The notes beneath the pieces are model-generated. The model did not search any database. It was not told where the DNA came from and saw only the letters and a list, made by a program, of their open reading frames with translations. The translations under genes and the position numbers were made by a program. Of a stretch of DNA of 64,000 nucleotides, positions 804 through 63,767 are shown piece after piece. Source of the stretch: Nanobdellota archaeon (GTDB taxonomy: Archaea; Nanobdellota; Nanobdellia; Pacearchaeales; GW2011-AR1); the NCBI GenBank assembly GCA_030647125.1, contig JAUSKC010000013.1:2249-66248 (forward strand), written 5' to 3'. Within the stretch, counting starts at the first letter, position 1; each line of letters starts with the position of its first letter.

Positions 804-1436
804 ATGGCAATAGAAACACAGCAATTCAAAAGAAACGTTGCATATAAATTCCGAATCGGAGATTTGCTAATTGGAAAACCTGTATTAGATGGAGAAAAAT
901 TCACCTTCTTGGAATTGGGAAACAAACAAATTGTAAGAGTAAATATCATTGGAAACATAGTAGACCGTTATGATTCTCAAGGCGAAAAGAAATACACTTT
1001 CTTAACTTTGGATGACGGTTCAGGACAAATTTCATTAAAAACATTTGGAGATGACATAGAAAAATTCAAAAACTTCACACAAGGCCTAACTGTTGCAATC
1101 ATTGGCGTCTTAAGATACTTCAACAATCAACTCTATATCTCTCCAGAAATAATAAAAGAACAAGACCCAAAATATTTACTCGTGAGAAAACTTGAACTAG
1201 AAAAAGAACGCTCTTCAAATTTCACACCTATGCAAAGAGAGCAAATAACCGCTGTAAGAGATAACATCTTGGATAAAATAAGAGATGCAGAAAACGCCGG
1301 AGGAATTGACAAAGAGGACTTGATAATGCAGCTCCGCAATTTCTCACCAGACATAATAAATCAAGAGATAAAAAAACTTCTTGAAGACGGAATTATATTC
1401 GAACCGCGCCCAGGTAAAGTTAGATGGTTGGGATAA
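804..1436 (+). CDS. OB-fold ssDNA-binding protein, RPA32/Stn1-like, with C-terminal winged helix
   Basis: OB pattern VRVNIIGNIV..YTFLTLDDGSGQISLKTF..VAIIGVLRYF, plus a C-terminal wH-like tail (LLEDGIIFEPRPGKVR). It lies directly downstream of mcm. Confidence 0.5.
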   Translation: MAIETQQFKRNVAYKFRIGDLLIGKPVLDGEKFTFLELGNKQIVRVNIIGNIVDRYDSQGEKKYTFLTLDDGSGQISLKTFGDDIEKFKNFTQGLTVAIIGVLRYFNNQLYISPEIIKEQDPKYLLVRKLELEKERSSNFTPMQREQITAVRDNILDKIRDAENAGGIDKEDLIMQLRNFSPDIINQEIKKLLEDGIIFEPRPGKVRWLG

Positions 1437-1953: not shown

Positions 1954-3569
1954 ATTTCTTGTTGAGCCTCAATTATAAGATTTTTTCTCCATTTTGGAAT
2001 TAACCATGCTCCTAAAATTAATATCATTCCACCCAATATTGCCAGTATACTAAAAGCAAGATAACCTGAAAAATTCATCCAAAATCCAATATATCTAGAA
2101 ATAATTTCTAATATAAATGCTATTAATCCAAGATTAATTATCTTAGTTGAACCTACAAATTGGCCATACCATAAAATTAAGATAATAAATCCTATAAAAA
2201 ATACATTTATAATTAACCATAAAACCCAAACTCCAAAAGGCATTAAATTATCTTCTCCAATAATACTTCCTATATAACCTCCTGCACCCCAGCTACAACC
2301 AGTTTCACTTAAACAACTATCTTTTTGATTATTATGAGTTCTACAAGTATTGTATAAAGAGTCAGATGCAAGTTCTTTATATTCCCTTTCACATCTTCCT
2401 CCAATCAAAATACATTTCGCCCCAGAAGGAGCAGAATTACAAGAGGATTCATTTAAGTTATAACAATCAAATTCCTGACAATAGCCTGCATTAGGAACAT
2501 TTGCATTATTTTGAGATTGCCATTTACAGCCCAATGTTGAAAGAGCTGCATTACACAGAGATTCCGTATCATAATTATAACAATTTTGAATCTCACAATA
2601 ACCTACTCCATTATCTCGCACAATCCACCCACAATTAAGATCAGCAGGTGCGCTATTGCATTCAGCCAATTTTTCAAAATTGTAACACTGTGTAGGAGAA
2701 CATGCACCAATCGCGCCTGCTGCAGATTTAGTGAACAATGCAAGAATAAAAAGAAGTATAAACACTCCAATAAATATCAATATTTCCTTAACATTCAATT
2801 CTCTTTTGCTTGCAGCAAATAAAATGGAAAGAATAAAAATAGCATAAGAAATCACTATAAATAAAATTAAGAATAAAGAAAACGCGCTTGCATCAAATTC
2901 ATAAGCTCCTAAAAGAGGTTGTATGCTCTGAAAACTAAGAATATAAAAGATAACAAGGAAATAAAACACTGTCCAAAATCTATACAAATTTGCAAAAGGA
3001 TGTTTTATTGCTTTATGAAAGATATTCAACCCATATAATAAAAGCCCCATGGTTAAAAATATAAAAACAAAAATTATAACCATCGCACTACCATCACGAA
3101 TTGCGTCTTCAACAGTAACCATATACTGCATAATCAACCACGGAAAAAAAAGAACAATTCCACCAAGTAAATTTTCTGGGGAATTTAACACATAAGCAAT
3201 AAAAATTAAAAAAAACCAACAAAAAAGAAAAAGCCAGGTCACCCCTTGAAGAGTAACATTAGTTGAATAAATTTGAGCAATTAGAAAAACACTTAAAACA
3301 TACAGGCCGCCCCCAAGTAAAATTAAAGCTCTTGCAATATATTCATGCTCTTGTGTTCTGATTAAAACTCCAACAATAAAAGCAAGTAAAGTAGAAAAAA
3401 CTAAAATAGACACTTTAAGAAAATCTGGAATATCATGCCAATTGTAAGCAATAATCCACGCAACCCCAACGAGAACCAAAATAGCCCCAATAATCGAAAC
3501 TATATTCAAGAAGAAAGACCCTTTCTTATCATTCTTTATCCATGTCATAATAAAAATAAGTTTCTGCAC
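1950..3569 (-). CDS. Polytopic membrane protein, DUF2157-like, with a Cys-rich repeat loop
   Basis: Many hydrophobic helices and an N-terminal AWIIAYNWHDIPDF segment like DUF2157 partners of GDYXXLXY genes. Residues 290-426 are hydrophilic and contain 16 Cys. Confidence 0.55.
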   Translation of the reverse strand: MQKLIFIMTWIKNDKKGSFFLNIVSIIGAILVLVGVAWIIAYNWHDIPDFLKVSILVFSTLLAFIVGVLIRTQEHEYIARALILLGGGLYVLSVFLIAQIYSTNVTLQGVTWLFLFCWFFLIFIAYVLNSPENLLGGIVLFFPWLIMQYMVTVEDAIRDGSAMVIIFVFIFLTMGLLLYGLNIFHKAIKHPFANLYRFWTVFYFLVIFYILSFQSIQPLLGAYEFDASAFSLFLILFIVISYAIFILSILFAASKRELNVKEILIFIGVFILLFILALFTKSAAGAIGACSPTQCYNFEKLAECNSAPADLNCGWIVRDNGVGYCEIQNCYNYDTESLCNAALSTLGCKWQSQNNANVPNAGYCQEFDCYNLNESSCNSAPSGAKCILIGGRCEREYKELASDSLYNTCRTHNNQKDSCLSETGCSWGAGGYIGSIIGEDNLMPFGVWVLWLIINVFFIGFIILILWYGQFVGSTKIINLGLIAFILEIISRYIGFWMNFSGYLAFSILAILGGMILILGAWLIPKWRKNLIIEAQQEI

Positions 3570-4095: not shown

Positions 4096-4395
4096 TTATT
4101 CTTGATATCTCTTCTTAACAGTTACTTCTTCTTTAAGAACACCTTCATAAGCCTTAGCCAATTGAACCGCCATGTCAAAATAAACAGGACTATAAACGCT
4201 TACTCTTGGATGAATTAAATTGCCAAAATGAATAATTGGAGATCTTTCCTGTCCTCTATACACTCCTATATAATCACTGGAATCTTGAGTTGTTAAAAAC
4301 CCATTACCCACAAGTTCCTTAGTAAGTTCAACTAAACGACTATAATTATCCCTTTCTTGAATATCTTCTTTTGTTAAACCTTCTATTTTAACCAT
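4096..4395 (-). CDS. hypothetical protein (99 aa)
   Basis: Clean ORF with ordinary composition. No motif recognised. Confidence 0.45.
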   Translation of the reverse strand: MVKIEGLTKEDIQERDNYSRLVELTKELVGNGFLTTQDSSDYIGVYRGQERSPIIHFGNLIHPRVSVYSPVYFDMAVQLAKAYEGVLKEEVTVKKRYQE

Positions 4396-11249: not shown

Positions 11250-12344
11250 TTATCTCCAAACCTCTATTCCAAGGTCTGAAATTTCTTTCGCAGGTGCTTT
11301 ATGACCACCGCGCATGAAGTCATCTCTATCTCTACCTAAGACATAAGGTGACTTAACACCAGTCATAATAGTTATTACTCGAACTTTACCAGCAAACTCT
11401 TTACTGATTCTTGCTCCAATAATAACGTTAGCATCAGAGCTCAAACTTTCCGAAACAGTTCTACCAATAATGTCAAACTCTTCCAATTTCAAATCAGGTC
11501 CGCAAGTTATATGAATCAATGCTCCAGTCGCACCCTTATAATCCACGTCAAGTAGAGGATGTGTAAGTGCCTGTTTTACTGCTTCATCAACTTTATTAGA
11601 ACTTGAATCACTTTCACCAATGCCAATAACTGCAACTCCACCGTCTTTCATGATTGCAGAAACATCTGCGTAATCAAGATTAATCAACGAAGGCAATGTA
11701 ATCGTCTCAACAATACCTTTAATCATCGTCGAAACCAACTCGTTAGCAACAGCAAAAGCTTGTTCAATTGGCAATTGTCCAGCAATATCAACTAATCTAT
11801 TATTATCCAAAACAATACATGTGTCTGTAACTTCCCTTAATTCTTGAAGACCAAATTCAGCTTTGTCTATTCTAGCTTTTTCAGCTTCGAAAGGCATAGT
11901 CACAACACCAATAACAACAGCTCCTGTTTCTTTTGCAATTTGAGCTACAACCGGTGCACTTCCTGTACCAGTTCCGCCACCCATTCCTGCAAGAACGAAA
12001 ACCATATCAGCGCCGCCAACAGCTTTTTTTATTTCAACCAATGCTTCTTTAGCTGCTTCTCTTCCTTTTTGAGGAACACCACCAGCTCCTAAACCTCTTG
12101 TGAGTTCTTTACCGATAAGAATTTTATCGTCGGCTTTTGAAACACTCAAGTGCAAAGCATCAGTATTAGCTGCGTAAACAGTAGCTCCTTGAACTCCTTT
12201 ATTAAAAAGCCAAGTAGTCATGTTACATCCGCAACCACCGCAACCAACAACTTTAATGTTAGCTTTACCAGCTCTTAACTCGTCAAAGTTAATGCTGTGC
12301 GTAGCGCTATTTTGAACCGCTTCTTTTGCAAAATCTAATACCAT
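11250..12344 (-). CDS. ftsZ: cell division GTPase FtsZ
   Basis: Tubulin signature GMGGGTGTGSAPVVA, plus NTDALHL and GLGAGG. GGAGG SD upstream. Confidence 0.95.
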   Translation of the reverse strand: MVLDFAKEAVQNSATHSINFDELRAGKANIKVVGCGGCGCNMTTWLFNKGVQGATVYAANTDALHLSVSKADDKILIGKELTRGLGAGGVPQKGREAAKEALVEIKKAVGGADMVFVLAGMGGGTGTGSAPVVAQIAKETGAVVIGVVTMPFEAEKARIDKAEFGLQELREVTDTCIVLDNNRLVDIAGQLPIEQAFAVANELVSTMIKGIVETITLPSLINLDYADVSAIMKDGGVAVIGIGESDSSSNKVDEAVKQALTHPLLDVDYKGATGALIHITCGPDLKLEEFDIIGRTVSESLSSDANVIIGARISKEFAGKVRVITIMTGVKSPYVLGRDRDDFMRGGHKAPAKEISDLGIEVWR

Positions 12345-45603: not shown

Positions 45604-45748
45604 ACCTTTAAAACAACTTGTTTGTTTTCGTCTTCCTTATTTCCTTAAAACAATTTATTGTTTTCGTCAGTCAGGAAACCTTTAAAACAACTTGTTTGTT
45701 TTCGTCATCCAGAAAACCTTTTAAATATTGTTTCTCGTTTCATTTGTT
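45604..45748 (+). repeat. tandem array (about 74-nt period, four sub-units) of the TTTAAAA/hairpin/CGTCA repeat
   Basis: 45604-45632 and 45678-45706 are identical 29-mers (ACCTTTAAAACAACTTGTTTGTTTTCGTC). Sub-units at 45645 and 45716 are degenerate copies. Confidence 0.75.
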
Positions 45749-45750
45749 AT

Positions 45751-45765
45751 GGCTCTGTAGCTCAG
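45751..45765 (+). repeat. orphan duplicate of the tRNA-Met 5' end
   Basis: GGCTCTGTAGCTCAG is identical to 45800-45814. Including the preceding AT (45749-45750), the 17-mer repeats at 45798-45814. Confidence 0.8.
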
Positions 45766-45799
45766 AGGAAAACCCTCGTTCGCTACATCGCTAAACAAT

Positions 45800-45871
45800 G
45801 GCTCTGTAGCTCAGCGGTAGAGCGCGGCTCTCATAAGGCCGAGGCCGGGAGGTCAGCACTCCTCAGAGCCA
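45800..45871 (+). tRNA. tRNA-Met (CAT) with a non-canonical T-loop
   Basis: Acceptor GGCTCTG/CAGAGCC and anticodon loop CTCATAA. The T-arm GGGAG-GTCAGCA-CTCCT has G54/G58 instead of T54/A58. Confidence 0.7.
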
Positions 45872-49523: not shown

Positions 49524-49615
49524 ATTTATGATTTTCCTAAATCCAACTCTTATTTAAAGATATTGATGAACTTAATAGAAACATTTTAAATAGATATTTT
49601 TAATTGATATTCTAT

Positions 49616-49666
49616 GCCCTGATTCGGCCAAGCATGGACGAAGCAGGGTGAACGAATGAAATTCGT
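49616..49666 (+). promoter_or_regulatory. two-hairpin structured element immediately 5' of tRNA-Arg(TCT)
   Basis: Hairpin A (49616-49649) is GCCCTG-a-TTCG-g-CCA[AGCA]TGG-a-CGAA-g-CAGGGT. Hairpin B (49652-49666) is ACGAAT-GAA-ATTCGT. A TATA-like TTTTAAATAG lies about 25 nt upstream. Confidence 0.5.
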
Positions 49667-49668
49667 AA

Positions 49669-52784: not shown

Positions 52785-52827
52785 CACTAAGTTTTTATAC
52801 TTCTTAAAAGAATTAAATTTAATCTTT

Positions 52828-52907
52828 GCGGCATTCAACGGAGGCAATTAAAAAATGCCGCTGAACAGTGCTTTGAGGAAGTTCGAAAGAAACCAGTGGG
52901 TGTCTTT
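52828..52907 (+). promoter_or_regulatory. hairpin with conserved loop plus 42-nt conserved extension (module copy 1)
   Basis: Stem GCGGCATT/AATGCCGC (52828-35 / 52854-61), loop CAACGGAGGCAATTAAAA. Extension 52866-52907 matches 62993-63034 at 40 of 42 positions. Confidence 0.65.
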
Positions 52908-52910
52908 CAT

Positions 52911-52994
52911 GCGGGTGTGCCGGAGCGGTCAAACGGGCTGGATTTAGGCTCCAGTAGCTTAGTGCTTGCGCAGGTTCGATTCCTGTCATCCGCA
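52911..52994 (+). tRNA. tRNA-Leu (TAG)
   Basis: Acceptor GCGGGTG/CATCCGC, anticodon arm CTGGA-TTTAGGC-TCCAG, long variable arm, T-loop TTCGATT. 84 nt. Confidence 0.85.
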
Positions 52995-54390: not shown

Positions 54391-57300
54391 CTAAACTATT
54401 TGGGTAACCGAATTCGTTGCACTAGAACTATACTCATTATAATACTTAATAACATTAGGGACATGAGTACTTTTTGCACGGATTAACTTTTCTTCCTTAA
54501 CCTTCCCATTTAAATTTTGTACACATTGATCATAATTAATAAAAGTTCCACCAACTTTACAATTACTAACAACAACAGAAGGACCGACATTGTAAGCTAA
54601 AGCCAAAATTCTTGGATTAGTTATTTGATAATTACTCCTTAAACAAGAAACATAACAAGTTCCAACTAAAATATTTCTCCTGTTAGCAATTCCATTAATA
54701 TCAGTCGTACTAGCAAATTGTGAAAGCAATTGCGCTCTGCTCGTAGACAAAGTAGAATAACCTATATTACTCAAATCAGCCGAACATGAAGGAACACAAA
54801 TCCCATCGATAGAATGAGTATTAAGATTAACAAAATCACTTAACATGCCATCTTCTTTTGCAGGAGTCAACTGCATTAAACCGATATCAGGAGTGCTTGC
54901 TGGATTCCAATCACTCTCTTGTGTTATTAAGGCCCTCACAAAATTTGCATTAACATTATATTTACCAGTTACTTCAATAACATAACTTGTCAAAGCGCTT
55001 TCAACATCACTATTGCTCGTAGAAATACGAACATTCTGACTATCAGAACTTAAAACATCATAATTTAAATTAATGCTATCAAAACTTGAAGTAGTTGCAG
55101 TTACTCCTCCACTAGTTCCTGTTTCAGTCGTCGTTCCGCTCGTCTGCGAATTAACAATCATATCAACAACTCCAAGCAAATCAGAATTTGTAACACTTGA
55201 ACTAAAAGTATTAGAAGTAACAGGAATATCTTTCAAATTCTCCCCATCATCAACTTTCCAGACCCCATCATAATAAAAATGATAACTTGTTGAACCGGAA
55301 GTCGCGCTAAAATAAAAGTCCCCTATGCCCAAACTTTGCGAACTTACAATTATATTTGCAATAGATTGTTTATTTTCATTAGTTAAACCAACAAAAGGAT
55401 CAGAAAATGTTCCACTTCCCGTAGTCGACACACCGCCGCCAACTTGATTTGTACTTAGTATGGTCTGTTGTGAAATAGCTTTATTATTTTCATCCTCAAA
55501 ATCCTGCGTCGCCAAAATTCCATAAGCTACTGCTCTCAAGAACAATATCTGTACCTTATTTGTATCCAACAACGATTGAGAAATTAAATTCTCAGTAATG
55601 TAACTTATTTTTTCAGCCGGACTCATTGCATTAATTTTATTCAATTCCATGTTTATATCAAATGAACTCGTCTGACCCAAAGCATTTATAACACTCGAAG
55701 ATAAACCTTGCAATGTATCGTTCTCAATTCCTATTCCTTTAATTGCTTGCTTAACGCTTTGCGTATCAATATAACAATTTAATCCTGCCGTCCCGCAACT
55801 TCCAACTTGAACCCAACGAGCATTTGCCCCTCCATCCAAAGGATCAGTTCCTTTTCCTGGGCTTGAAGTAGAACACACACGAACAATTCCTTGATTGTAC
55901 AATTGCGGATTCAAAACTTGATTCGCGCCTTCTTGAACATTTGGCTGAACTAAACTATAAACACTCGGCGTTCCTGAAACACACTCTTGTTCAGTTTTTA
56001 CTGTCTGCGTCGCTTGCTCTTTCAAATACTGATCATTCAAATAATTCAAAGCAAATGAAGTTGTAACTTTTTGGAAGCCGCAATCATCTTTTCCGTTGAC
56101 AGAAATACACATCTGTTGATATCCTGTCGGAGCAAGAATATCTTTTGTTTCTGATGCCGAGCCGCCACGTTTAATATAACCAGAATCAACAACTAAAAGT
56201 TGATTTGTCTGGTAATAAGAGCTTCCAACTGGCGCCTTCAAGTAAACTTGGAAATAAGCACCTTGATCATTTCCAGAATAAATATGATAAAAGACCTTAT
56301 ACTGCGAAGTTGAAGGCACTGTAGCCGTTGTGTAAGGAATTTCGCTGAACCATCCTTGATATTGATTTGGTGAATCAGGAGCAAGCAAGTTATCTAAGAA
56401 TTTTCCACTATTAGGGTAATTTGCCGACGCGAACGCCTTACAAACTGTGCTTCCAACTTCATTTGTCGACCTAGCTTGGAACGCCTTATACGATTGAGCT
56501 CCATAATAATTAACCATATAATCAATTGAATTCTGCGCATTTGTCCAAGCACTTTGAATTCCTAAATATTCTCCACCGCCATGCGACGTCTTTCCTGAAA
56601 CAACTTCCAAAAGTTTCGGAACTAAAAGATTTGCAACTGGAATTGATTGTCTCCACAAAAATTCACACATATAAATACTATTAATCTCGTCACAAATTCC
56701 AACAGTTCTCCCAGTATCTAAATTATCTTGCAAACACATTTGATAATCTTTCATTACAGAAATTAAATCATCAACTCCTGCTTTAACTCCAGTTAAACAA
56801 ATAGGAACTTTAACTTCCGGGAAATTAGGCAAGCAAAGAGCGACACTTCCTATAATTCCGGATTGAATAACATTATCAACATGGTACGAACCACCTAAAT
56901 CACATCTTGAAGATGGACAAATTACCGGGTCGCAAACATTAAATAATAAATTACAATTTGCAGGACTCATGAAATCAGTGCATTCAATATCCGGAACATT
57001 TGTAGCTGGATTTCCAACTTTAATTGTCTGTCCGTTAATAACAACTTGAGTTACTCCTGCCTTGTATTGTCTGCTAGCTTGAGTAATTGCATTTATCGCT
57101 TGCCTTACTAAACTTTGAGTTTGCCCTTCAGTAAGCCCTGGGAAAGATCCGTAAATCGCTCCAGTTCCAGGATTAAATTCTGTGCAAGTGTCATCGCCAA
57201 ATCCTGAATCAGCTTGTGCTCTCCCATTAGCACCAACATTACAAAGCAAGAAACTTGCAGGAGCTCCTGATTGATCATACGTCGCTGTAGCTCCTCCAAC

Positions 57301-60300
57301 ACCAGCAATGTTAGCCAAAGCGCCAGGCAAAGTCTGTTTAGTATAAGTATACCACCCATTGCTCAAATCAAATGGAACTTGTGCAGGCATTCCTTTGTAA
57401 GGTGCTGTTTCAAAATACTTTACTTGTGCATCAATAAATTTATTATTATAACTTGAACTATCATACTTTACAAAAACAGGATATCTTGATTTCACAAGCT
57501 TAGTATTTTCATCGCTTGCAGCTCCGCCAGCTAAATCATAAACATTATCTGGAACATAATTTCCATTCCCAGCATCCTTCAAACTGACAATATATTCTCC
57601 ACTACTTACAATGGCTCCTGCAACAGGCGTTCCAGAAATTATTCCATAACTATTCGCTCCTGCAACTGCTCCATTATAAACTCCTGGCTTCAAATCTTTA
57701 TCCACAAAAACATTAAAGTTAAGTCCGTTTATTCCTTTGCCCGCAGCTTCACTTACACTATTTGTTATCTTTGTATATGTCTCGCTTCGTGTCTGAATTG
57801 TTTTTAACGTCGAATACAAATTCGCTTTGGCAATTTGTTCTAATTCAGGACTAGGATTGTTTGCCAAAACCGCATTCCACGTCGATATATCTCGAGCTTC
57901 GCTTAACTGAACTTGCCCATCACTATACCCTTTTTGTGTAAAAACACTTTTTACTTCGGCAACATCAATATTATTATTTTGATTATTAGGATCTGTAATA
58001 ACTGCAGGCAAACCACTTGCAATTTGTTGTAATTGTGTTCCTGCATTGCTGTCAGTTACAGGATTTTTACTATACTCTGTAATAATTTGGCTTAATTTAT
58101 CAACATCAGTATTTATCTCGTCATTATTTTCAAGCAGACACGTGCTTACACTAGAATATTTTTTCTGGCTGAATAATTGTTGACATTTAGAATTCCATCC
58201 TCCAGGCCCAGTCATCACGTTTTGTCTAGCAATTGCTTTTCCTCCAGTATTGCTTATGAAATTTGAAACTGTCAAGAAAGCCCCCGTCGTCAAACACGCT
58301 GCCTTAAACCCTGTAACAACTGTTCCAAGATTCTTAGAAATTCCTTCCCATTTGGCAATGCTTTGATTCAAATTATTAATTTTAGATTGAATCTGATCCG
58401 GCGCAAGTTGAATTGCCCGCTTTTCAATTCCAAGTTTAAAACTAAAATTCGCTTGTGAATTAACATTATTTATTTCAGGAATTAAAGATACCTTTGCAAC
58501 TTTATGCAGATTAATTCCTGTTAAAATAATTGTTTTATCCCCAACAGCAACGGCTTTGTTCTTTTGAAGAATAAGATTCTGATTAGACGCAAATCCTGCT
58601 TTATCATCTTTTATAGTTGAAACAGCCTTAACACTTACAGTCGCCGTATTATCATCTAAATTAACTAACTGAATAAATTCGCCGCTGGAAGAATCTTCAT
58701 GCTTTTGTTCCTTTCCAAGTTGCACACTTTCACTCCCAAACAATATATTCGCGCTGTAATCATTCGGCGACGGCTCAACAACATCATTTAATCCAATTGT
58801 CGTAGCAACTCCATTAATCAATAATGTTTTTGAACTTGCTGCCCCATTTGACAAAGCTAAAGTGTCTCCGCACTGATTTTGAACTTGAACTAATAAAGGC
58901 GATGTTGAATAAAGTTGCACGAAACGTCCGCAAAGTTCAGTTGCTTTAGAATATTCATGAACTCCAAATGCAAGTTTTATTGCAGCAAACAAAGAACTCT
59001 CTCCATAAGTTACTCCTCCATTATTTACACTTCCATAAGAACTGACTATTCTATTATAATCACTCAATGCCTTAAAAAAATTGCTTCCTTGCTTATTGCT
59101 GAAATCAAATTTATTAACTCCAGTAGAATATCCCACAACTTTTAAATCACTTCCAAAAACACTCGTCGATAATTTAATCTTTGGATCAACTGTCTGCGCC
59201 GCTCCAAAAGGAACAACTTCTCCTCCCAATATACTAAAAGAAGAAATATCTCCTGCTCTAAATTTAGAATTAATTGTATTTGTAATTGTGCTTAAAGTTG
59301 AGGCCTCTAAATTTGAATTTGTTGTCTCATAAAGATAAACATACAAATCACCTGTGTTCATAGAATCAAGATTTGGTTTTCCACTAGCATCCTTTGAATA
59401 AGAACCAGTATAAACTAAATATGCATTCTGGCCATTTATAGAATGAACTAACTCGCCAACATTCTTCACAATAGGATTGCCCCCTACATCAAGTTTCACC
59501 GACGGACTTGTTATCAAATCAAAACTCTGACTTCCACTATCAGTTGTACATCTTACACTTACTCTCTTATTCAACCCTTGTTTTAGGACATTATAGGCCT
59601 GGCATCTATTTTCTGCAAAACTTTGTCCTTCTGACAAATCAAATACATTTCCATTGATTTCTACTTTTGCAATTGTGCCCGGATTTTGTATATCATCTAA
59701 ATGAACTCTCATATAAGCATTACAATAAAATCCTGGAATTGCAATCTGGCCAGAACTTGCTCCCTTTTGCAAAGTCACACTATAAGTTCTTTGTGTCTTA
59801 TCAGCATAAACAGAAATTGTCGCGTCGTTATTTGTAACATCATTCACTCTCAAATATCCTCTCCCATTCCAAAATCCATACCCAACAAAATTATTATTCC
59901 AATCACTTTCACTTAAAACCGGAAGAACGTATTGTGATTGACCTATGCCAAACGCTTTTTGAATATCATAACGAATCGTCGCTGTCAAGTTTCCTTCGAC
60001 AAAATCTGGCATTGCAGATTCATTTTGTTGTTGTTTCAAAACAATAACTGCATAACCAACATTGCTCAAAACAGGAGAATTTAATAAAGTCCCGCTTGAA
60101 TACGACAAAGCAGCCCTTGCAGGATAAAATCCTATTCCTGAAATAGCAGCCGGCCTTTGTGTTCCTGAAGAAAAACCAATATCCATATGCTCAATTGCCT
60201 TAACGTCAATTAATGGATTTATTTTAGTTGCAACTATCGGACAAAAAACAGGAACATTTTCTTCTTCTAGCAAATCGCTTCTTACCACCATTGGTGTACA

Positions 60301-60510
60301 TCCAAGTGGAGCAATCTGCAAAATAAAATCAGCCCCATTAGCATCACACCTTATATTTGAATACTGCCCGACATTTAATCCTTGAGAATTCAAATAATTA
60401 AAAGCATCCGGCTGAGAATACTGAACATAAGAGCTTGTATAACCAGAAACAAAATTAAATAATAAAATCCCATATAAAAAAATTGTTAAAAAGATAAATT
60501 TTTTATTCAT
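54391..60510 (-). CDS. giant secreted Cys-rich protein (2039 aa) with C-terminal lytic transglycosylase (SLT) domain
   Basis: Sec-type signal MNKKFIFLTIFLYGILLFNFVSG. Uninterrupted 6.1-kb ORF. The C-terminus carries ITQESDW (Glu codon 54916-54918), IGLMQL and LALAYNVGP, which are SLT motifs I-III. Confidence 0.85.
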   Translation of the reverse strand: MNKKFIFLTIFLYGILLFNFVSGYTSSYVQYSQPDAFNYLNSQGLNVGQYSNIRCDANGADFILQIAPLGCTPMVVRSDLLEEENVPVFCPIVATKINPLIDVKAIEHMDIGFSSGTQRPAAISGIGFYPARAALSYSSGTLLNSPVLSNVGYAVIVLKQQQNESAMPDFVEGNLTATIRYDIQKAFGIGQSQYVLPVLSESDWNNNFVGYGFWNGRGYLRVNDVTNNDATISVYADKTQRTYSVTLQKGASSGQIAIPGFYCNAYMRVHLDDIQNPGTIAKVEINGNVFDLSEGQSFAENRCQAYNVLKQGLNKRVSVRCTTDSGSQSFDLITSPSVKLDVGGNPIVKNVGELVHSINGQNAYLVYTGSYSKDASGKPNLDSMNTGDLYVYLYETTNSNLEASTLSTITNTINSKFRAGDISSFSILGGEVVPFGAAQTVDPKIKLSTSVFGSDLKVVGYSTGVNKFDFSNKQGSNFFKALSDYNRIVSSYGSVNNGGVTYGESSLFAAIKLAFGVHEYSKATELCGRFVQLYSTSPLLVQVQNQCGDTLALSNGAASSKTLLINGVATTIGLNDVVEPSPNDYSANILFGSESVQLGKEQKHEDSSSGEFIQLVNLDDNTATVSVKAVSTIKDDKAGFASNQNLILQKNKAVAVGDKTIILTGINLHKVAKVSLIPEINNVNSQANFSFKLGIEKRAIQLAPDQIQSKINNLNQSIAKWEGISKNLGTVVTGFKAACLTTGAFLTVSNFISNTGGKAIARQNVMTGPGGWNSKCQQLFSQKKYSSVSTCLLENNDEINTDVDKLSQIITEYSKNPVTDSNAGTQLQQIASGLPAVITDPNNQNNNIDVAEVKSVFTQKGYSDGQVQLSEARDISTWNAVLANNPSPELEQIAKANLYSTLKTIQTRSETYTKITNSVSEAAGKGINGLNFNVFVDKDLKPGVYNGAVAGANSYGIISGTPVAGAIVSSGEYIVSLKDAGNGNYVPDNVYDLAGGAASDENTKLVKSRYPVFVKYDSSSYNNKFIDAQVKYFETAPYKGMPAQVPFDLSNGWYTYTKQTLPGALANIAGVGGATATYDQSGAPASFLLCNVGANGRAQADSGFGDDTCTEFNPGTGAIYGSFPGLTEGQTQSLVRQAINAITQASRQYKAGVTQVVINGQTIKVGNPATNVPDIECTDFMSPANCNLLFNVCDPVICPSSRCDLGGSYHVDNVIQSGIIGSVALCLPNFPEVKVPICLTGVKAGVDDLISVMKDYQMCLQDNLDTGRTVGICDEINSIYMCEFLWRQSIPVANLLVPKLLEVVSGKTSHGGGEYLGIQSAWTNAQNSIDYMVNYYGAQSYKAFQARSTNEVGSTVCKAFASANYPNSGKFLDNLLAPDSPNQYQGWFSEIPYTTATVPSTSQYKVFYHIYSGNDQGAYFQVYLKAPVGSSYYQTNQLLVVDSGYIKRGGSASETKDILAPTGYQQMCISVNGKDDCGFQKVTTSFALNYLNDQYLKEQATQTVKTEQECVSGTPSVYSLVQPNVQEGANQVLNPQLYNQGIVRVCSTSSPGKGTDPLDGGANARWVQVGSCGTAGLNCYIDTQSVKQAIKGIGIENDTLQGLSSSVINALGQTSSFDINMELNKINAMSPAEKISYITENLISQSLLDTNKVQILFLRAVAYGILATQDFEDENNKAISQQTILSTNQVGGGVSTTGSGTFSDPFVGLTNENKQSIANIIVSSQSLGIGDFYFSATSGSTSYHFYYDGVWKVDDGENLKDIPVTSNTFSSSVTNSDLLGVVDMIVNSQTSGTTTETGTSGGVTATTSSFDSINLNYDVLSSDSQNVRISTSNSDVESALTSYVIEVTGKYNVNANFVRALITQESDWNPASTPDIGLMQLTPAKEDGMLSDFVNLNTHSIDGICVPSCSADLSNIGYSTLSTSRAQLLSQFASTTDINGIANRRNILVGTCYVSCLRSNYQITNPRILALAYNVGPSVVVSNCKVGGTFINYDQCVQNLNGKVKEEKLIRAKSTHVPNVIKYYNEYSSSATNSVTQIV

Positions 60511-62387
60511 TGAAACTCAACCCCCAATCCATTGTTATCATATAAAATATAATTTTCTTGTAACCGCTCAATGCTATTTGGTACAGGAAGTGAACTTGCA
60601 CTTATAACAATTTTATCTGAGTCCTGCAATTCAGATTGTGAAACGTAATAATCTTGCTTTCCTCCTCCAGATAAAACATTCGTTAAACTTTGCTCCGGAT
60701 AATTGATATCAAAACATTTTTCTTGTGTAAATCCAAACAAGCCTCCAACTCCCGACGCTGGAACATCAACACACTGCTGCTGCGTGCTTTCAGGAATAGA
60801 CATGCTTGAATTTTGATAAATAACCACTTGAATATTATACTGCCCTTCACTCAACTCAACACTGTTCTGTCTAGGGAAAACTGCAGTCACTGCACTTCCA
60901 TTTTCTTTATTGAAAGAAATAATTGCATCTCCTCCATAATCCTTTCCATCAACTTTTAATTCCAAATTCTTGCTATACAACTTGCTTAAAACAATATCAA
61001 CTTGGCCTGATTGTGCCTGCGTTACCACATACGTTCCATCTTCATAACCATCGGTCTGCGCAACAACTTTTCCATTAACACATTGAGGAATCTTTCCGTC
61101 CAAATGCCCCCCTTTTGTCTGTCCTATATCACATTGAGTTCCAAAACATTCGAACGAAACATTTGCATCAACCTTATTCAAATTGCTATCATAAACATTT
61201 ACTCCAACATTTGAGTTTGCATACTCGCACAACGAAGTGTCCGTCCCTACTGCTACCGCCCCTACTAAAGATTTCCGAGGATGATTTCCTTGAATTACAA
61301 CTGCAATAGGAAACTGGAAAATAGCGCCGGTAGGATCGTCATAAATCTGAACTAAGACAGGATATTTAACATCATAAACAAAATGGTACGGAACATAACA
61401 AAAGCCCAAAGCCCCCAAACCTTGTTGATTTCCAACCGGATCCGCTTGAAGAACATTCCCATTAGAAGGACTAACTTCGTAAACATGAGGCCAATTCTTA
61501 GACGTTAAGAATTTAACATTTGTATTCGTTCCCAAATCCTCAACAAAATACTGATCTTTCTTACTATTCAAACTATAATCTCCTCCCTTAACTTTAATTG
61601 CTACAATGTTCGCATCAAGTCCGTTTCCTAAATTTTCTAAGACGTCCTCTGCAATCCATGTTTTAGGTGCGCACTGAATTTCAACTCCATCTACCGGAGC
61701 ATAAAGTCTCAAAATATCCAAAGTTCTATTTTCTAAAAATAAATATTTCTGCTCATTGTTATAGACCTTTAATGCATCCGAATACATACTTCCAATGTTT
61801 GAATTAATTGAAATTTTATGGTTTCTTACAAGAACACTTTCATTCCCTTTTCTAATCACTAAATCCATTACCATATCAATTTGAACTTTGCTATCAGAAA
61901 TACTAACATCCGCTTTGGGCTTAGACATATTAATAACCAAACCATCACTATAAAATTCAGAAAAATCACAACTTCTAGCTCGTGCTTCAATAAATTTTGA
62001 TAAATCATTTTCCATACTTGTCATTGAAGGAACTTGTTGTTTCTCAACTCCATTACCTGAAACGTAATACCAATAAGGAATAGGGTTGCCAAGAAAATCC
62101 AACTGCGATGAAAAAGGCGAGAAGCGTGAGCCCGGATAAAATTGAGGCATATAAATATAACCGCCTTGACTTCCAAGAACATTAATTCCTGTCTTCAAAT
62201 CATTTTGCAAACAATTTTGGAAATTAGTGTAGGCAGGTTGCAAATCAGAAGGAATATTGTTGTTACTTACATCAGCAAAAAAAACAAAATACGCTATTAC
62301 GCCAGCAACAATAACTATTCCAAGAATAATAAATATTGTCGCCTGCGCCCTGTTATTTCTAGCAAAATCTCTCCCCTTTTCGAACAT
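60507..62387 (-). CDS. 626-aa surface protein with class III (type IV pilin-like) signal peptide
   Basis: The N-terminus ...ARNNRAQATIFIILGIVIVAGVIAYFVFF fits the [KR][GA]|Q + hydrophobic pattern. The remainder is beta-rich and Cys-containing. ATGA overlap with the giant gene. Confidence 0.75.
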   Translation of the reverse strand: MFEKGRDFARNNRAQATIFIILGIVIVAGVIAYFVFFADVSNNNIPSDLQPAYTNFQNCLQNDLKTGINVLGSQGGYIYMPQFYPGSRFSPFSSQLDFLGNPIPYWYYVSGNGVEKQQVPSMTSMENDLSKFIEARARSCDFSEFYSDGLVINMSKPKADVSISDSKVQIDMVMDLVIRKGNESVLVRNHKISINSNIGSMYSDALKVYNNEQKYLFLENRTLDILRLYAPVDGVEIQCAPKTWIAEDVLENLGNGLDANIVAIKVKGGDYSLNSKKDQYFVEDLGTNTNVKFLTSKNWPHVYEVSPSNGNVLQADPVGNQQGLGALGFCYVPYHFVYDVKYPVLVQIYDDPTGAIFQFPIAVVIQGNHPRKSLVGAVAVGTDTSLCEYANSNVGVNVYDSNLNKVDANVSFECFGTQCDIGQTKGGHLDGKIPQCVNGKVVAQTDGYEDGTYVVTQAQSGQVDIVLSKLYSKNLELKVDGKDYGGDAIISFNKENGSAVTAVFPRQNSVELSEGQYNIQVVIYQNSSMSIPESTQQQCVDVPASGVGGLFGFTQEKCFDINYPEQSLTNVLSGGGKQDYYVSQSELQDSDKIVISASSLPVPNSIERLQENYILYDNNGLGVEFQ

Positions 62388-62594: not shown

Positions 62595-62912
62595 ATGAAA
62601 CTACCGAAACAAGTAATGCGTTTCAATCCATACTTAAGAAAGAGAACTTTGCATAAAATAAAGATAGTTAGCACAGGAAATAAAAGAGGAACTTTAACAC
62701 GTGGTTCGATTAATCGTGCAAAATTAAGGGGCCTTGGAAGAGGGATAGGAAATAAAGGAAAATGGGGTTCAAAACCTGCTGTCTCTAAATTCAAAAGAAA
62801 AGCAAAGACAACAAAAACAATGAACATAATGTATACTTGTATTGAATCTGGAAAATCACACTATAGAAAATCAAGGAGAAATCAAAGAACTGGTAAAATC
62901 CAGCAAGAATAA
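62595..62912 (+). CDS. very basic 105-aa protein, weakly ribosomal-protein-L34e-like at its N-terminus
   Basis: TATA-like TTTAAAAA about 25 nt upstream of the ATG. PYLRKRTLHKIKIVSTGN loosely parallels RYRSRSLRRVYRKTPGG of eL34, but the Cys ligands are absent. Competing antisense ORFs exist. Confidence 0.35.
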   Translation: MKLPKQVMRFNPYLRKRTLHKIKIVSTGNKRGTLTRGSINRAKLRGLGRGIGNKGKWGSKPAVSKFKRKAKTTKTMNIMYTCIESGKSHYRKSRRNQRTGKIQQE

Positions 62913-62958
62913 AGATGAAAAATCAAATTCAATTAAATAAAGTTGGTAGTAGAAACTT

Positions 62959-63034
62959 GCGATTTCACCAGAGGCAATTAGAAATCGCCGTTCAGTGCTT
63001 TGAGGAAGTTCAAAAGAAACCAGCGGGTGTCTTT
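62959..63034 (+). promoter_or_regulatory. hairpin with conserved loop plus 42-nt conserved extension (module copy 2)
   Basis: Stem GCGATTT/AAATCGC (62959-65 / 62982-88), loop CACCAGAGGCAATTAG. The extension ends 3 nt before ATG 63038 of rps3ae. Confidence 0.65.
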
Positions 63035-63037
63035 TAA

Positions 63038-63574
63038 ATGGCTCAAGCAAAAAAGAAAAAAAAGTTTTTTGAAGTTGAAATTCCTTTGATAGGCAAAGTA
63101 ACACAGCTTCTCGCTTATGAAATGTCTGAATTAAACGGACGAATAATTAATTATGACTTAACCAGACAACTGCGTGGAAAAAGCATGGTCTTGCAATTAA
63201 AAGTTTCCGCAGACGATAAAAAAGCAACAACAACTCCAACAAAAGCGCAAGTTCTACCATACTTTTTAAGAAGGATGATGAGAAAAGGAACAAATTACAT
63301 TGAGGACTCATTTTCAACTAATACCTCCGACGCTAAAGTAACAATAAAGCCATTCTTAATAACAAGAAGAAAGGTCTCACGGGCTGTAAGAAAAGCTCTT
63401 AGAGAAAAAGCCCGAGCAGAATTAATAAGCTATTCTCAAGCACATTCCTCTGAAGAAATATTTAAAGACCTTTTATCAAACAAAATTCAAAAGGAATTGT
63501 CTTTGGTTTTAAAAAAGATTTATCCTTTGTCTCTTTGCGAAATAAGGGTTTTCAAGATAGAAAAAGCGGAATAA
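63038..63574 (+). CDS. rps3ae: ribosomal protein S3Ae (eS1)
   Basis: KKKKKFFEVEIPLIG...LNGRIINYDLTRQLRGKSMVLQLKV pattern of eS1. Confidence 0.85.
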   Translation: MAQAKKKKKFFEVEIPLIGKVTQLLAYEMSELNGRIINYDLTRQLRGKSMVLQLKVSADDKKATTTPTKAQVLPYFLRRMMRKGTNYIEDSFSTNTSDAKVTIKPFLITRRKVSRAVRKALREKARAELISYSQAHSSEEIFKDLLSNKIQKELSLVLKKIYPLSLCEIRVFKIEKAE

Positions 63575-63618
63575 AAACTCTTTTAAACCATTTAATTCTA
63601 AAACAAATATATCAAGAT

Positions 63619-63649
63619 GAGTTTCCAACGGAGGCAATGAAAGAAACTC
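63619..63649 (+). promoter_or_regulatory. hairpin with conserved loop (copy 3, no extension)
   Basis: Stem GAGTTTC/GAAACTC (63619-25 / 63643-49), loop CAACGGAGGCAATGAAA. 45 nt after the rps3ae stop and 47 nt before tRNA-Thr. Confidence 0.6.
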
Positions 63650-63695
63650 TTTCCGCGCCAAAAAGGAAAATCGAAAAAAATCTTGGTTGTTTTCA

Positions 63696-63767
63696 GCCTG
63701 CATAGCTCAGTGATAGAGCAACGCACTTGTAATGCGTAGGTCGGGGGTTTAAATCCCTCTGCAGGCT
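63696..63767 (+). tRNA. tRNA-Thr (TGT)
   Basis: Acceptor GCCTGCA/TGCAGGC, anticodon arm ACGCA-CTTGTAA-TGCGT, T-loop TTTAAAT. Confidence 0.85.

Follow-up and report, generated by a model that had tools for sequence, protein, structure and literature searches.

Three perfect hairpins with a common loop lie on one strand of the 64,000-nt stretch of archaeal DNA analysed here (the window), each between an upstream stop codon and a downstream tRNA or ribosomal protein gene, and the question raised by this arrangement is whether the hairpins serve those genes or have some other origin. The original prediction viewed them as RNA or single-stranded DNA structures selected for a specific loop and suggested, among other roles, a processing or regulatory site in ribosomal protein and tRNA transcripts. 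Homologs of Rps3ae place the window in Pacearchaeota, and an identical contig is present in the sample of SRR13727527.

Results

Structure of the repeat

All three predicted hairpins were present in the sequence with perfectly complementary arms (Table 1) and shared the loop CA(A/C)C(G/A)GAGGCAAT. Conservation of the loop was evident from 3 exact matches to the pattern CAMCRGAGGCAAT in the window, all on the + strand, compared with 0.01 expected and with none of 100 shuffles reaching 3; a one-mismatch match at 11685 lay within coding sequence and lacked a hairpin. The distances of 44–47 nt from the upstream stop codons and the identities of the downstream neighbours were likewise as predicted.

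Alignment and a consensus fold indicated that the hairpin, while real, is only the first third of a larger conserved unit. This core of approximately 77–84 nt consists of hairpin 1, a 23-nt linker, hairpin 2 and a terminal A. Hairpin 1 begins at the first base of the element, has a stem of 7–8 bp and a loop of 14–18 nt with C(G/A)GAGGCAAT, and is followed by CGTTCAG or TGAACAG with no T run. The linker consensus is ..TTCAG.G.TT.GAGGAAG.., and hairpin 2, of approximately 10 bp, ends 0–2 nt from the last base and occurs as two main sequence variants, the first ending in TTTCTTTT and the second lacking a T run. The two hairpins have no sequence or loop in common. Left ends of the element read G-CGATTTC.. 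or TGGTATC.. and right ends ..GGTTTCTTTTA or ..GTCCTCGC, and no terminal inverted repeats were seen when these ends were read by eye. In the window, the cores end 0–2 nt before tRNA-Leu, the rps3ae ATG and tRNA-Thr.

Table 1. Positions of the three window copies and their flanking features, and copies carried in-frame by other genes
Feature	Position	Strand	Details
AT-rich spacer, tfb stop to copy 1	52785-52827	+	Candidate TATA-like boxes TTTTTATA (52792-52799) and GAATTAAATTT (52810-52820)
Copy 1 core	52828-52910	+	From sequence, alignment and consensus fold; 82 bits (model R1), 77 bits (model R2); adjoins G1 of tRNA-Leu(TAG) at 52911
Copy 1 hairpin 1	52828-52861 (52828-52835/52854-52861, loop 52836-52853)	+	Arms GCGGCATT / AATGCCGC, perfectly complementary
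Copy 1 linker	52862-52884	+
Copy 1 hairpin 2	52885-52894/52899-52908	+	Loop AGTG; terminal AT 52909-52910
AT-rich 5' extension before copy 2	62913-62958	+	Contains BRE/TATA-like CAATTAAATAA; missing at empty orthologous sites
Upstream ORF, 40 codons	62915-63037	+	Reads through all of copy 2; stop TAA 63035-63037 directly before rps3ae ATG
Copy 2 core	62959-63037	+	From alignment and consensus fold; model score 106 bits; adjoins rps3ae ATG at 63038
Copy 2 hairpin 1	62959-62988 (62959-62966/62981-62988)	+	Arms GCGATTT(C) / (G)AAATCGC, readable as 8 bp
Copy 2 linker	62989-63011	+
Copy 2 hairpin 2	63012-63021/63026-63035	+	Terminal AA 63036-63037
AT-rich spacer, rps3ae stop to copy 3	63575-63618	+	Candidate TATA-like box CTTTTAAACC (63580-63589)
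Copy 3 core, diverged	63619-63695	+	From alignment and consensus fold; 50 bits (model R1); adjoins G1 of tRNA-Thr(TGT) at 63696
Copy 3 hairpin 1	63619-63649 (63619-63625/63643-63649)	+	Arms GAGTTTC / GAAACTC, perfectly complementary
Copy 3 linker	63650-63672	+	TTCAG and GAGGAAG lost
Copy 3 hairpin 2	63673-63694	+	Terminal A 63695
In-frame copy	L053		PolB exonuclease domain
In-frame copies	L050/L056		TRM5/TYW2; the two genomes read the core in different frames
In-frame copy	L035		RsmB/F
In-frame copies	L045/L071		DUF167

The proposal that selection acts on a single-stranded hairpin presenting a specific loop was borne out by both stems, which covaried far above controls among 60 distinct copies. 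Pairing was retained in 95.5% of stem cells as opposed to 79.4% in shuffles and at most 59% in slid controls, and 16 of 18 stem pairs were changed on both sides, with 184 compensatory cells (none of 500 shuffles as high). On the model alignment, G.U exceeded A.C in the stems by 31 to 9, hand-called stems having given too few cases for this comparison, and the + (sense) strand is thus favoured as the folding strand. Hairpins were intact, with compensatory changes, even in copies within coding regions (compare L050 to L056); together with the excess of G.U, this could reflect a function in place as RNA.

The repeat was not assigned to any familiar RNA class. Visual inspection of the window sequence revealed neither C/D nor ACA boxes, motifs read in the same way did not fit a C/D box or H/ACA RNA, a K-turn or K-loop, a hammerhead or a tRNA-like minihelix for tRNase Z, and in searches of Rfam 15 only tRNAs reached the gathering score, permissive searches with the three window copies returning matches at chance level. 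An outward promoter in the 3' half of the element, considered as a cause of the fixed distance to gene starts, was also rejected, positions -35 to -20 of hairpin-2 variant 2 being GC-rich (GAGCGCGAGGAAAA) and unlike a TATA box. Pairing of GGCA in loop 1 with UGCU in the linker as a pseudoknot was not supported, since the key position is A or G in 5 of 35 copies. A compensatory-looking change in this putative pairing was noted in one diverged copy, L045b.

Distribution and evidence of mobility

Pattern scans together with the search by covariance models that the original prediction had proposed revealed approximately 85 copies, all in Pacearchaeota and related DPANN assemblies; many of these copies are kin by descent, so that such counts exceed the number of independent events. 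True matches were divided between genome contigs and metagenome contigs (approximately 30 each) from assemblies of Nanoarchaeota, Pacearchaeota or 'Woesearchaeota', with no match in the viral contigs scanned, and up to 5 contigs of a single assembly, H32-bin101_1, carry the element. No earlier description from Pacearchaeota or other DPANN archaea was found in the literature searched, and the two-hairpin repeat of approximately 80 nt is an undescribed, lineage-specific one.

Comparison of orthologous sites revealed both filled and empty states. The element is missing from the rps3ae site of four related genomes (L002, L004, L005 and L007), in which 2–3 nt separate the rps3ae ATG from the stop codon of the 105-aa ORF, and from the tRNA-Thr site of L002 and L005, while it is present at one or both of these sites in the window, L016, L070 and L077, the ortholog of copy 3 occupying positions 1732-1808 of L016. 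Orthologous sites both with and without the element were also noted at Gins51. Differing hairpin-2 variants have hit the same site at rps3ae (window and L077 as opposed to L070) and at rpl24e (L045 as opposed to L020 and L029), and nested or tandem copies occur in L021, L022/L054, L052/L079, L076 and L065. Mobile behaviour is indicated by this presence and absence at orthologous sites, by genomes with multiple copies, by nested and adjacent copies and by the occurrence of different variants at the same hot spots.

These results contradict the notion of a conserved processing or regulatory site of ribosomal protein and tRNA transcripts, given the empty rps3ae and tRNA-Thr sites of related genomes and the presence of the element before unrelated genes, within ORFs, antisense in tRNA introns and nested within itself. 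Similarly, the rule that each hairpin follows a stop codon by about 45 nt fails outside the window, where the element is fixed in position relative to the downstream gene start; the spacing from upstream stops is incidental.

The flanks of 54 copies showed no consistent target-site duplication of fixed length. ATG or TATG was present on both sides of approximately 17 of these copies, many copies in sense at a start codon have ATG on the right only, and copies within ORFs have no flank duplication except for TATG in L053. To the left of the core, TATG was found in 17/54 copies and G at -1 in 46/54, the flank being otherwise variable. Several insertions are bordered by target duplications of 9–39 nt, both duplicates of which look constrained as coding sequence, and this is not explained by simple transposition. 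The template and variable repeats of a diversity-generating retroelement were considered as a source of the duplicated C-termini and rejected, the repeats being 27–39 nt and their differences not adenine-specific. Within flanks of 8–20 kb, no transposase, integrase or autonomous parent was found beside the copies, and neither a Y1 transposase nor TnpB was found near any copy.

Insertion sites and gene starts

Approximately 40% of copies adjoin, in sense orientation, either a start codon or the 5' end of a tRNA. Among 59 copies, 21–22 lie 0–1 nt from the ATG of a long ORF in the same orientation and 3–4 adjoin a tRNA 5' end, while five are spanned by an uninterrupted ORF that reads them in-frame and stop-free (Table 1), in the case of PolB as the peptide ...NEKNYATSVGGNEK.... 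Two more are within anticodon-loop introns of tRNA-Ser (L009) and tRNA-Phe (L065), and one is on the opposite strand, 8 nt beyond the 3' end of 16S rRNA. Both orientations relative to host transcripts occur. Stop-free frames on the sense strand numbered 1.38 per core compared with 0.51 ± 0.08 in shuffles. A standard ARAGORN run was noted to miss tRNA genes with the element in an intron.

The ORF that runs through copy 2 starts at an ATG that occupies the rps3ae start position of element-free genomes. Comparable upstream ORFs pass through the core in 16 of 20 sense-start copies and end between -16 and +11 nt from the ATG of the gene. In aligned sequences of both hairpin-2 variants, removal of hairpin 2 leaves 7–8 nt between the linker GAGG and the ATG (6+1–2 nt for one, 7+0 nt for the other), and the 16S rRNA of a carrier genome has the 3' end ...GGATCACCTCCT. 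TATA-like boxes occur approximately 4–30 nt upstream of the core in many copies, at variable distance, and extensions with ATGAAATTAAATAAA recur at unrelated loci. The extension of copy 2 is a putative promoter by its sequence and has homologs in front of other cores, both at the rps3ae sites of L070 and L077 and elsewhere. The box CTTTTAAACC lies approximately 29 nt before the core of copy 3, which is the distance between the tRNA promoters of this genome and the transcript start. Judged by the TATA-like boxes upstream, pre-tRNA-Leu probably has copy 1 as its 5' leader, pre-tRNA-Thr copy 3 and rps3ae mRNA copy 2.

Discussion

Nature of the element

The three hairpins in the window are the front ends of three copies of a lineage-specific, non-coding repeat of Pacearchaeota that is probably mobile and non-autonomous, akin to Rickettsia palindromic elements (RPE), REP elements or MITEs. 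Selfish mobile DNA is the most likely identity of this repeat, rather than a signal that regulates the particular genes beside it. The conserved loop, the linker and the stems in which pairing is kept would be recognition features for an activity that copies or moves the repeat, with recognition most likely on the single-stranded sense strand. Copies would persist where harm is small, tolerated because they can be translated or removed. One such site would be directly 5' of a start codon or tRNA +1; at start codons, an upstream ORF from the old start would read through the element and stop at the real ATG, and folding of hairpin 2 would bring the linker GAGG to within 7–8 nt of that ATG. In-frame, stop-free positions in proteins, tRNA introns and positions just past RNA 3' ends would be tolerated as well. 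Several observations count against a mobile repeat of this kind: placement to within 0–1 nt of start codons is much too exact to follow readily from selection among random insertions, neither terminal inverted repeats nor a consistent target-site duplication were seen, no transposase, integrase or autonomous parent was found beside the copies, the hairpins are kept intact by compensatory changes even within coding regions, and the target duplications of 9–39 nt do not fit simple transposition. A more far-reaching but unlikely reading is that the repeat is a mobile element of a kind new to archaea, with integration directed to RNA boundaries (the starts of transcription or translation, splice sites and the 3' ends of mature RNAs). 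Its movement would depend either on an RNA intermediate processed by the tRNA splicing endonuclease and the ligase RtcB or on the transcription-initiation complex as a target. It would be rendered harmless by features of its own, namely a promoter-like extension, few stops on the sense strand, a Shine-Dalgarno split by a hairpin, and a duplicate of the gene end that replaces the displaced one and differs from it at synonymous sites.

A possible, if distinctly less probable, explanation is a portable 5' leader, or promoter-plus-leader cassette, which works as RNA for otherwise leaderless genes and is kept because it benefits or co-regulates housekeeping genes, a reading compatible with a mobile origin. 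The sense orientation of copies that abut an ATG, the excess of G.U, the recurrent extensions and the constant spacing of GAGG, considered with the 16S 3' end, are in its favour; folded hairpin 2 would place GAGG(AAG) at Shine-Dalgarno distance, and GGAGG in the loop may act as a ribosome standby site. Copy 3, which precedes a tRNA, fits as well in having lost GAGGAAG but kept both hairpins. However, close relatives express the same genes without the element, approximately half of the copies have no downstream ATG (those antisense in tRNA introns, at RNA 3' ends, in ORFs and before tRNAs), and, with TATA-like boxes at variable distance (4–21 nt) from the core, hairpin 1 would often lie outside the transcript. 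The copies in tRNA introns bear on a different and improbable explanation, namely an intron-like element cut out by the archaeal splicing endonuclease and ligase, in which a locus-specific segment pairs with the exon as a bulge-helix-bulge and mobility results from reverse splicing and copying into DNA. In L009, the 110-nt intron at position 37/38 of tRNA-Ser(GGA) consists exactly of the antisense core and a further 33 nt; a bulge-helix-bulge (two 3-nt bulges and a 4-bp helix) is present there, with UCCAA at the end of the intron paired to UUGGA of the anticodon loop beside a 3-nt bulge. Nested copies in the tRNA-Phe intron of L065, complementarity of segments left of the core to the beginning of the right flank (L011, L018, L027, L028, L034/L046 and L041) and the coding constraint apparent in C-terminal codons duplicated on both sides point the same way. 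On the other hand, a constrained in-frame scan of the duplicated FtsY and DUF-protein ends for a bulge-helix-bulge found nothing convincing, a general scan gave dozens of matches per locus in AT-rich sequence and was at noise level, in-frame and stop-free copies make splicing unneeded, and the element occurs in both orientations relative to host transcripts.

Strong conservation of structure, TATA-like boxes upstream of many copies and the TTTCTTTT end of hairpin-2 variant 1 would also be expected of an independent, multi-copy small RNA gene of approximately 60–80 nt with its own TATA box and the T-rich 3' strand of hairpin 2 as terminator. Such a gene is even harder to credit given that variant 2 is without a T run, that copies occur inside ORFs and introns, that sites are empty in relatives, that a downstream gene starting 0–2 nt after the element would be left with no promoter and that a match in Rfam is absent. 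The uniform start of the window copies 44–47 nt past a stop codon would suit a hairpin that serves the upstream genes as 3' UTR, terminator or processing site, but this is the least credible explanation and is contradicted by comparative data: no T run follows hairpin 1, outside the window the element comes after promoters, introns, coding sequence or further copies of itself, and orthologous intergenic regions are without it.

Comparison with known elements

A close parallel to a mobile repeat in these positions is with RPE, short structured selfish repeats that are found in intergenic regions, in RNA genes and, in-frame and stop-free, in unrelated housekeeping proteins (reviewed in PMC10969869). 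Like RPE, the Pacearchaeota element is short, structured and multi-copy in a reduced genome and forms in-frame, stop-free inserts (here in PolB, TRM5/TYW2, RsmB/F and DUF167). The likeness is by analogy only, as there is no relation in sequence and the host here is archaeal; the element is also smaller (approximately 80 nt compared with 100–150 nt), has two unlike hairpins in place of one long palindrome, and clusters strongly at the exact positions of start codons and of the 5' ends of tRNAs. To our knowledge, the latter is not a described feature of RPE.

REP and hairpin-ended derivatives of IS200/IS605 (palindrome-associated elements), which are moved by HUH/Y1 transposases, are small, with subterminal hairpins, conserved single-stranded motifs, strand asymmetry, no inverted repeats and no regular target duplication. 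The Pacearchaeota repeat is similar in its small size and subterminal hairpins, in its conserved single-stranded motifs, in conserving structure above stem sequence, in strand asymmetry and in the lack of visible inverted repeats. The left- and right-end hairpins of IS200/IS605 are alike, whereas those of the repeat are unlike, and the tetranucleotide of its left flank, TATG, is weakly conserved and not strict. With classical MITEs, which depend on DDE transposases and are known among archaea from Sulfolobus, Halobacterium and Haloquadratum, it shares a non-coding sequence of less than 300 bp, multiple copies, insertion polymorphism and nested or tandem copies, but it differs in having no visible terminal inverted repeats or consistent fixed-length target duplication and no known parent insertion sequence; no report of MITEs from DPANN archaea was found in the literature searched.

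Duplicated tRNA fragments remain where mobile elements have integrated into the tRNA genes of archaea (PMC3293823), and several insertions of the repeat are similarly flanked by a duplicated 5' piece of a tRNA or gene. Unlike integrative elements, the repeat encodes no recombinase. It resembles bulge-helix-bulge introns in that copies form most of two anticodon-loop tRNA introns, while most copies are outside introns and have no recognisable bulge-helix-bulge. Shine-Dalgarno leaders split by a hairpin are found in phage T4 genes 38 and 25. As in these leaders, the AUG is separated from an SD-like GAGG by a hairpin, the folding of which would cut the effective spacing to 7–8 nt; this likeness is purely geometric, and the Pacearchaeota element is also found where an AUG is absent.

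Implications

The tiny genomes of DPANN archaea are generally regarded as containing little mobile DNA. A selfish element unseen by standard annotation would mean that such genomes are reshaped before and inside core genes for replication, translation and RNA modification. Recognition of the hairpins as single strands or RNA by the mobilising activity would make that activity a mobility system new to archaea. The exact positions at start codons and tRNA +1, with upstream ORFs that read through, would amount to a natural experiment on the tolerance of leaderless genes for a leader. Consequences for gene annotation may follow as well. Several database entries for Rps3ae are 15–60 residues longer than the 178-aa protein of the window; in at least four of these loci (L002, L004, L005 and L007), where the element is absent, the over-long proteins were due to the choice by the gene caller of an upstream in-frame start codon, and the element, where it precedes rps3ae, could yield an extension of the same kind.

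Structure of the repeat

The three hairpins of the original prediction were found at their predicted positions, with perfectly complementary arms in each and with the neighbouring genes as described (TFB and tRNA-Leu, the 105-aa ORF and rps3ae, and tRNA-Thr). The loop pattern CAMCRGAGGCAAT occurred three times in 64 kb, always on the + strand, as opposed to 0.01 times expected from dinucleotide-preserving shuffles of the window; a one-mismatch loop match at 11685 was within coding sequence and lacked a stem. The hairpin observation is correct and statistically secure. Alignment of the three intergenic regions indicated that similarity extends another 45–50 nt past hairpin 1, through a 23-nt linker (copies 1 and 2, CAGTGCTTTGAGGAAGTTC; copy 3, degenerate) and a second hairpin (GAAAGA-A-ACC AGTG GGT-G-TCTTTC), in which outer pairs co-change between window copies from G-C to A-T, as does an inner G-C pair. 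Since hairpin 2 ends 2 nt before G1 of tRNA-Leu, 2 nt before the rps3ae ATG and 1 nt before G1 of tRNA-Thr, the repeat keeps a fixed distance from the start of the downstream gene and not from the upstream stop codon.

A covariance model was built from 14 ungapped copies and the two-hairpin structure, and 63 copies (60 distinct) were aligned to it for pair counts. In this structure-fitted alignment, in which many copies are related by descent, standard pairs occupied 95.5% of cells, compared with 79.4% in shuffles, and fell to 45–59% when 3' partners were slid by 1–3 columns. Changes on both sides were noted in 16 of 18 pairs, compensatory cells numbered 184 against 49 expected, and none of 500 shuffles matched any observed pairing measure. 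The variety of stems, which included GCGATTTC, GTGGTATC, GCAGTATC, CAATTTC, TTGATTTT, GCGGCATT and GAGTTTC for hairpin 1 and AAAAGAAACC..GGTTTCTTTT and GCGAGGAAAAC..GTGTCCTCGC for hairpin 2, leaves no doubt about stem covariation despite the fitted alignment. Thus, the earlier inference of selection on hairpin structure was borne out across 60 distinct copies. The excess of G.U (31) over A.C pairs (9) favours the sense strand as the folding strand. Conservation was highest in the unpaired GAGGCAAT of loop 1 and in TTCAG.G.TT.GAGGAAG of the linker.

Coordinates of features in the window and in related database loci (L numbers)
Feature	Locus and position	Strand	Remark
TFB gene	window, end 52784	+	followed by tRNA-Leu
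tRNA-Leu	window, start 52911	+	downstream of copy 1
rps3ae	window, 63038-63574	+	preceded by 105-aa ORF
tRNA-Thr	window, start 63696	+	downstream of copy 3
Upstream-ORF stop	window copy 2		TAA/ATG
Upstream-ORF stop	L077		TAATG
Upstream-ORF stop	L027b		ATGA
Upstream-ORF stop	L011b, L055b		+4 relative to gene ATG
Upstream-ORF stop	L020, L029, L045b, L074		+5 relative to gene ATG
Duplication, Gins51 start	L011, L018		33 nt
Duplication, tRNA-Lys 5' end	L015, L028		18-22 nt
Duplication	L027, L041		
Duplication, FtsY C-terminus	L036 ~2890-3065; L048 913-1085		
Duplication, small-protein C-terminus	L034 ~1100-1250; L046		
tRNA with TTTAAATA-type box	window 6463		
tRNA with TTTAAATA-type box	window 26607, 49523	-	
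tRNA with TTTAAATA-type box	L002 10713; L005 10592		

Distribution and insertion at orthologous sites

The window was placed in Pacearchaeota by its Rps3ae homologs. A degenerate DNA pattern identified 41 loci in a species-representative genome collection, of which about 30 were real, all in Nanoarchaeota, Pacearchaeota or 'Woesearchaeota' assemblies; about 11 bacterial matches, without hairpins, were due to chance. A stricter pattern gave 33 metagenome loci (30 real) and no copies in viral contigs, and a covariance-model search, suggested along with the original prediction, yielded additional, more diverged copies in the same loci. In one assembly (H32-bin101_1) the repeat was present on at least five contigs. 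No matching family was found in Rfam at gathering or permissive thresholds, and no description of the repeat in literature searches.

In four related genomes (L002, L004, L005 and L007) the gap between the 105-aa ORF and rps3ae is 2–3 nt, and in L002 and L005 tRNA-Thr directly follows rps3ae, an ordinary TATA box lying about 30 nt before the tRNA. The extra DNA at these two sites in the window and its close relative L016 amounts to about 125 nt and 77 nt. At the Gins51 start, too, the repeat is absent in L002 and L007 and present in L004/L011 and L018. By this comparison the repeat is an insertion, not a conserved signal, and its proposed role as a signal of these r-protein/tRNA transcripts in particular was not upheld, the orthologous sites being empty in relatives. 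On the best-supported reading, the copies form a new family of small, structured mobile repeats specific to DPANN archaea, combining tolerance inside genes like that of Rickettsia palindromic elements (RPE) with a striking preference for the exact 5' gene boundary.

Copies were also nested within the hairpin 1 loop (L022/L054) or at the linker/hairpin-2 border (L021) of other copies, arranged in tandem (L052/L079, L076) or, in degenerate form, repeated within one tRNA intron (L065). Small unrelated inserts were noted in the linker (L027b) and hairpin-2 loop (L046, L066). The inserts of L046 (minus strand of the locus) and L066 (~4135-4195), about 53–60 nt long, begin GAGCGATTTCACG or GAGCAATTTCACG; as they lie in hairpin 2 of two unrelated copies, they are possibly another repeat family. 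At the rps3ae start, hairpin-2 variant 1 is present in the window and L077 and variant 2 in L070, and at the rpl24e start the copy is variant-1-like in L045 but of variant 2 in L020/L029; such mixtures reflect either repeated insertion at one site or conversion of copies by one another.

Genomic context of copies

In a census of 59 copies, 21–22 adjoined, in sense orientation and within -1 to +1 nt, the start ATG of a long ORF. Behind them are diverse housekeeping genes, including by Pfam S3Ae, L24e, L37Ae, SRP54 and an OB-fold protein, and by sequence reading MCM, SMC, RNase J and a membrane protease. Three or four copies adjoined a tRNA 5' end, and five were crossed by an uninterrupted reading frame. 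In a family-B DNA polymerase (L053), the exonuclease domain contains an insert of 84 nt (28 codons), removal of which restores the polymerase sequence (...GNEKNY/VEYAKDEAELLEKF). Copies within TRM5/TYW2 methyltransferase (L050, L056) are read in different frames, both open, because of a 1-nt length difference; others lie within an RsmB/F methyltransferase (L035) and a DUF167 protein (L045/L071).

Antisense copies were noted directly past tRNA 3' ends (L069, L076) and 8 nt past a 16S rRNA 3' end (L023). In L009, an antisense core plus 33 nt constitutes exactly the 110-nt intron of tRNA-Ser(GGA) at 37/38, and pairing between the intron end and the anticodon loop follows the usual bulge-helix-bulge pattern; L065 is the equivalent case in tRNA-Phe. 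Introns of 53–190 nt are frequent in Pacearchaeota tRNA genes (L028 1282-1453, L076, L065, L010 772-897, L041 1068-1211), and such genes, missed by a standard ARAGORN run, were found only with the intron option.

Every ORF-internal, start-adjoining and tRNA-5'-adjoining copy was in sense orientation, and stop-free frames per core numbered 1.38 in sense, 0.93 in antisense and 0.51 ± 0.08 in shuffled sequences. In its open sense frames and in-frame copies inside genes the repeat is like RPE, for which such in-gene behaviour has been described (review PMC10969869).

At two loci (L047 ~815-911, minus strand; L068 890-973), a GatB/GatE-like gene behind the repeat starts with ATA or ATT (IGLEIHGYL...) where other copies have ATG, an ATG being retained left of the repeat but out of frame; this gene either uses a non-AUG start or is damaged.

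Possible expression of genes behind the repeat

In 16 of 20 sense copies at gene starts, an ATG 16–50 nt 5' of the core opens a frame of 32–47 codons through the whole core, with its stop between -16 and +11 nt from the gene ATG. Seventeen of 19 upstream ATGs at that distance were in the core-open frame, only about 46% of core frames being open, and the window ATG at 62915 corresponds to the rps3ae start in genomes without the repeat. As frames differ between loci, the act of translation rather than the peptide would matter. This upstream ORF suggests termination-reinitiation coupling that would keep the gene behind the repeat expressed.

With hairpin 2 folded, the linker GAGG as read from the sequences of both variants would be 7–8 nt from the ATG (6 nt before the hairpin and 1–2 nt after, or 7 and 0), and the 16S 3' end of a carrier genome is ...GGATCACCTCCT. 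Folding may bring GAGG near the ATG and help expression, in a geometry like that of phage T4 leaders with a hairpin-split Shine-Dalgarno sequence. Upstream of many copies lies an AT-rich extension, in which a candidate BRE/TATA-like box (ATGAAATTAAATAAA or ..TTTAAACCTCG) ends 4–21 nt before the core, or 7–29 nt in the window; with so variable a distance, hairpin 1 could lie inside or outside the transcript. A role of the repeat as a portable leader, acting at the RNA level, is possible.

Target duplications and probable mobilisation

The mechanism of mobilisation and the recoded duplications of the target are of particular interest. Direct duplications of 9–39 nt of target flank several copies, and the start of the duplicated piece recurs, as its inverse complement, in a locus-specific segment of 17–24 nt beside hairpin 1. 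The FtsY and small-protein duplications comprise the C-terminal 9–13 codons and stop, one copy on either side of the repeat, with almost exclusively synonymous differences, both stop codons kept and one E/K change common to both duplicates within each genome. The distal FtsY copy is nearly identical to the native 3' end in genomes without the insertion. In the proximal copy, which is in frame, recoding has put A/C-ending codons in place of the native G/T-ending ones. Covariation links the complementary segment to the proximal copy (GACGACAAA/TTTGTCGTC as opposed to GACAACAA/TTGTTGTC), and wobble pairing of this segment with the distal copy is still possible. No bulge-helix-bulge motifs by which the two C-terminal copies would be spliced in-frame were found in a scan. 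At archaeal tRNA genes, integration of elements carrying a copy of part of the target is known (PMC3293823), and the present duplications may be of this kind.

The layout of duplicated 5' end plus complement also occurs without the core, before tRNA-Met (window 45751-45799) and a tRNA-Thr (L016 1809-1859). The first 15 nt of this tRNA-Met (45800-45871) are exactly copied at 45751-45765, followed by a small hairpin and GCTACA complementary to the tRNA 5' end. Within 45717-45871, a TATA box (~45720-45727) is placed for transcription start at the partial copy, and therefore for a 49-nt leader.

No terminal inverted repeats were seen by eye at the repeat ends, where the initial G and the final A of the core show about 85% conservation. 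TATG forms the left flank of 17 of 54 copies, AT(G) opens the right flank in about half, and only about one third have ATG on both sides. ORF-internal copies had no target duplication except TATG in L053. The absence of terminal inverted repeats and of a regular target duplication, with the end hairpins and conserved single-stranded motifs, would fit folded-strand enzymes (HUH-type) better than DDE transposases; counting against the former, the two hairpins are unlike each other and the flank motif is weak. No candidate mobilising enzyme was seen in the flanks of copies. Precision at start codons and tRNA +1 seems to exceed that expected from selection on random insertions, and targeting of initiation complexes or RNA ends is conceivable.

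Other features of the window and related loci

RNase P RNA was not detected within the 64-kb window. Upstream of the 105-aa ORF and rps3ae, the minus strand (54391-62387) encodes a 2039-aa ORF, one ortholog of which has an SLT (lytic transglycosylase) domain, and a 626-aa ORF without a Pfam match; this synteny is conserved in L002, L005 and L007, L004 being only partly covered. The 105-aa ORF (62595-62912) is highly basic, has no Pfam match and, in all related loci retrieved through protein look-up (L002, L004, L005, L007), lies directly 5' of rps3ae; it may encode an unrecognised ribosomal or RNA-binding protein. Many Rps3ae database entries (P0002-P0009 and others) are 15–60 residues longer than the 178-aa protein of the window, an upstream in-frame start codon having been picked by gene callers in at least four such loci (L002, L004, L005, L007); the repeat before rps3ae may cause the same kind of N-terminal over-extension.

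In most tRNA genes a TTTAAATA-type box ends 22–24 nt before +1, a position that suggests leaderless transcription, as described for Nanoarchaeum equitans. For tRNA-Arg(TCT) (49585-49668), the TATA box lies about 80 nt before the gene, and there is a leader of about 59 nt with strong structure (-21.3 kcal/mol, z = -3.95; 0 of 200 shuffles folded as well), the sequence of which is unrelated to the repeat.
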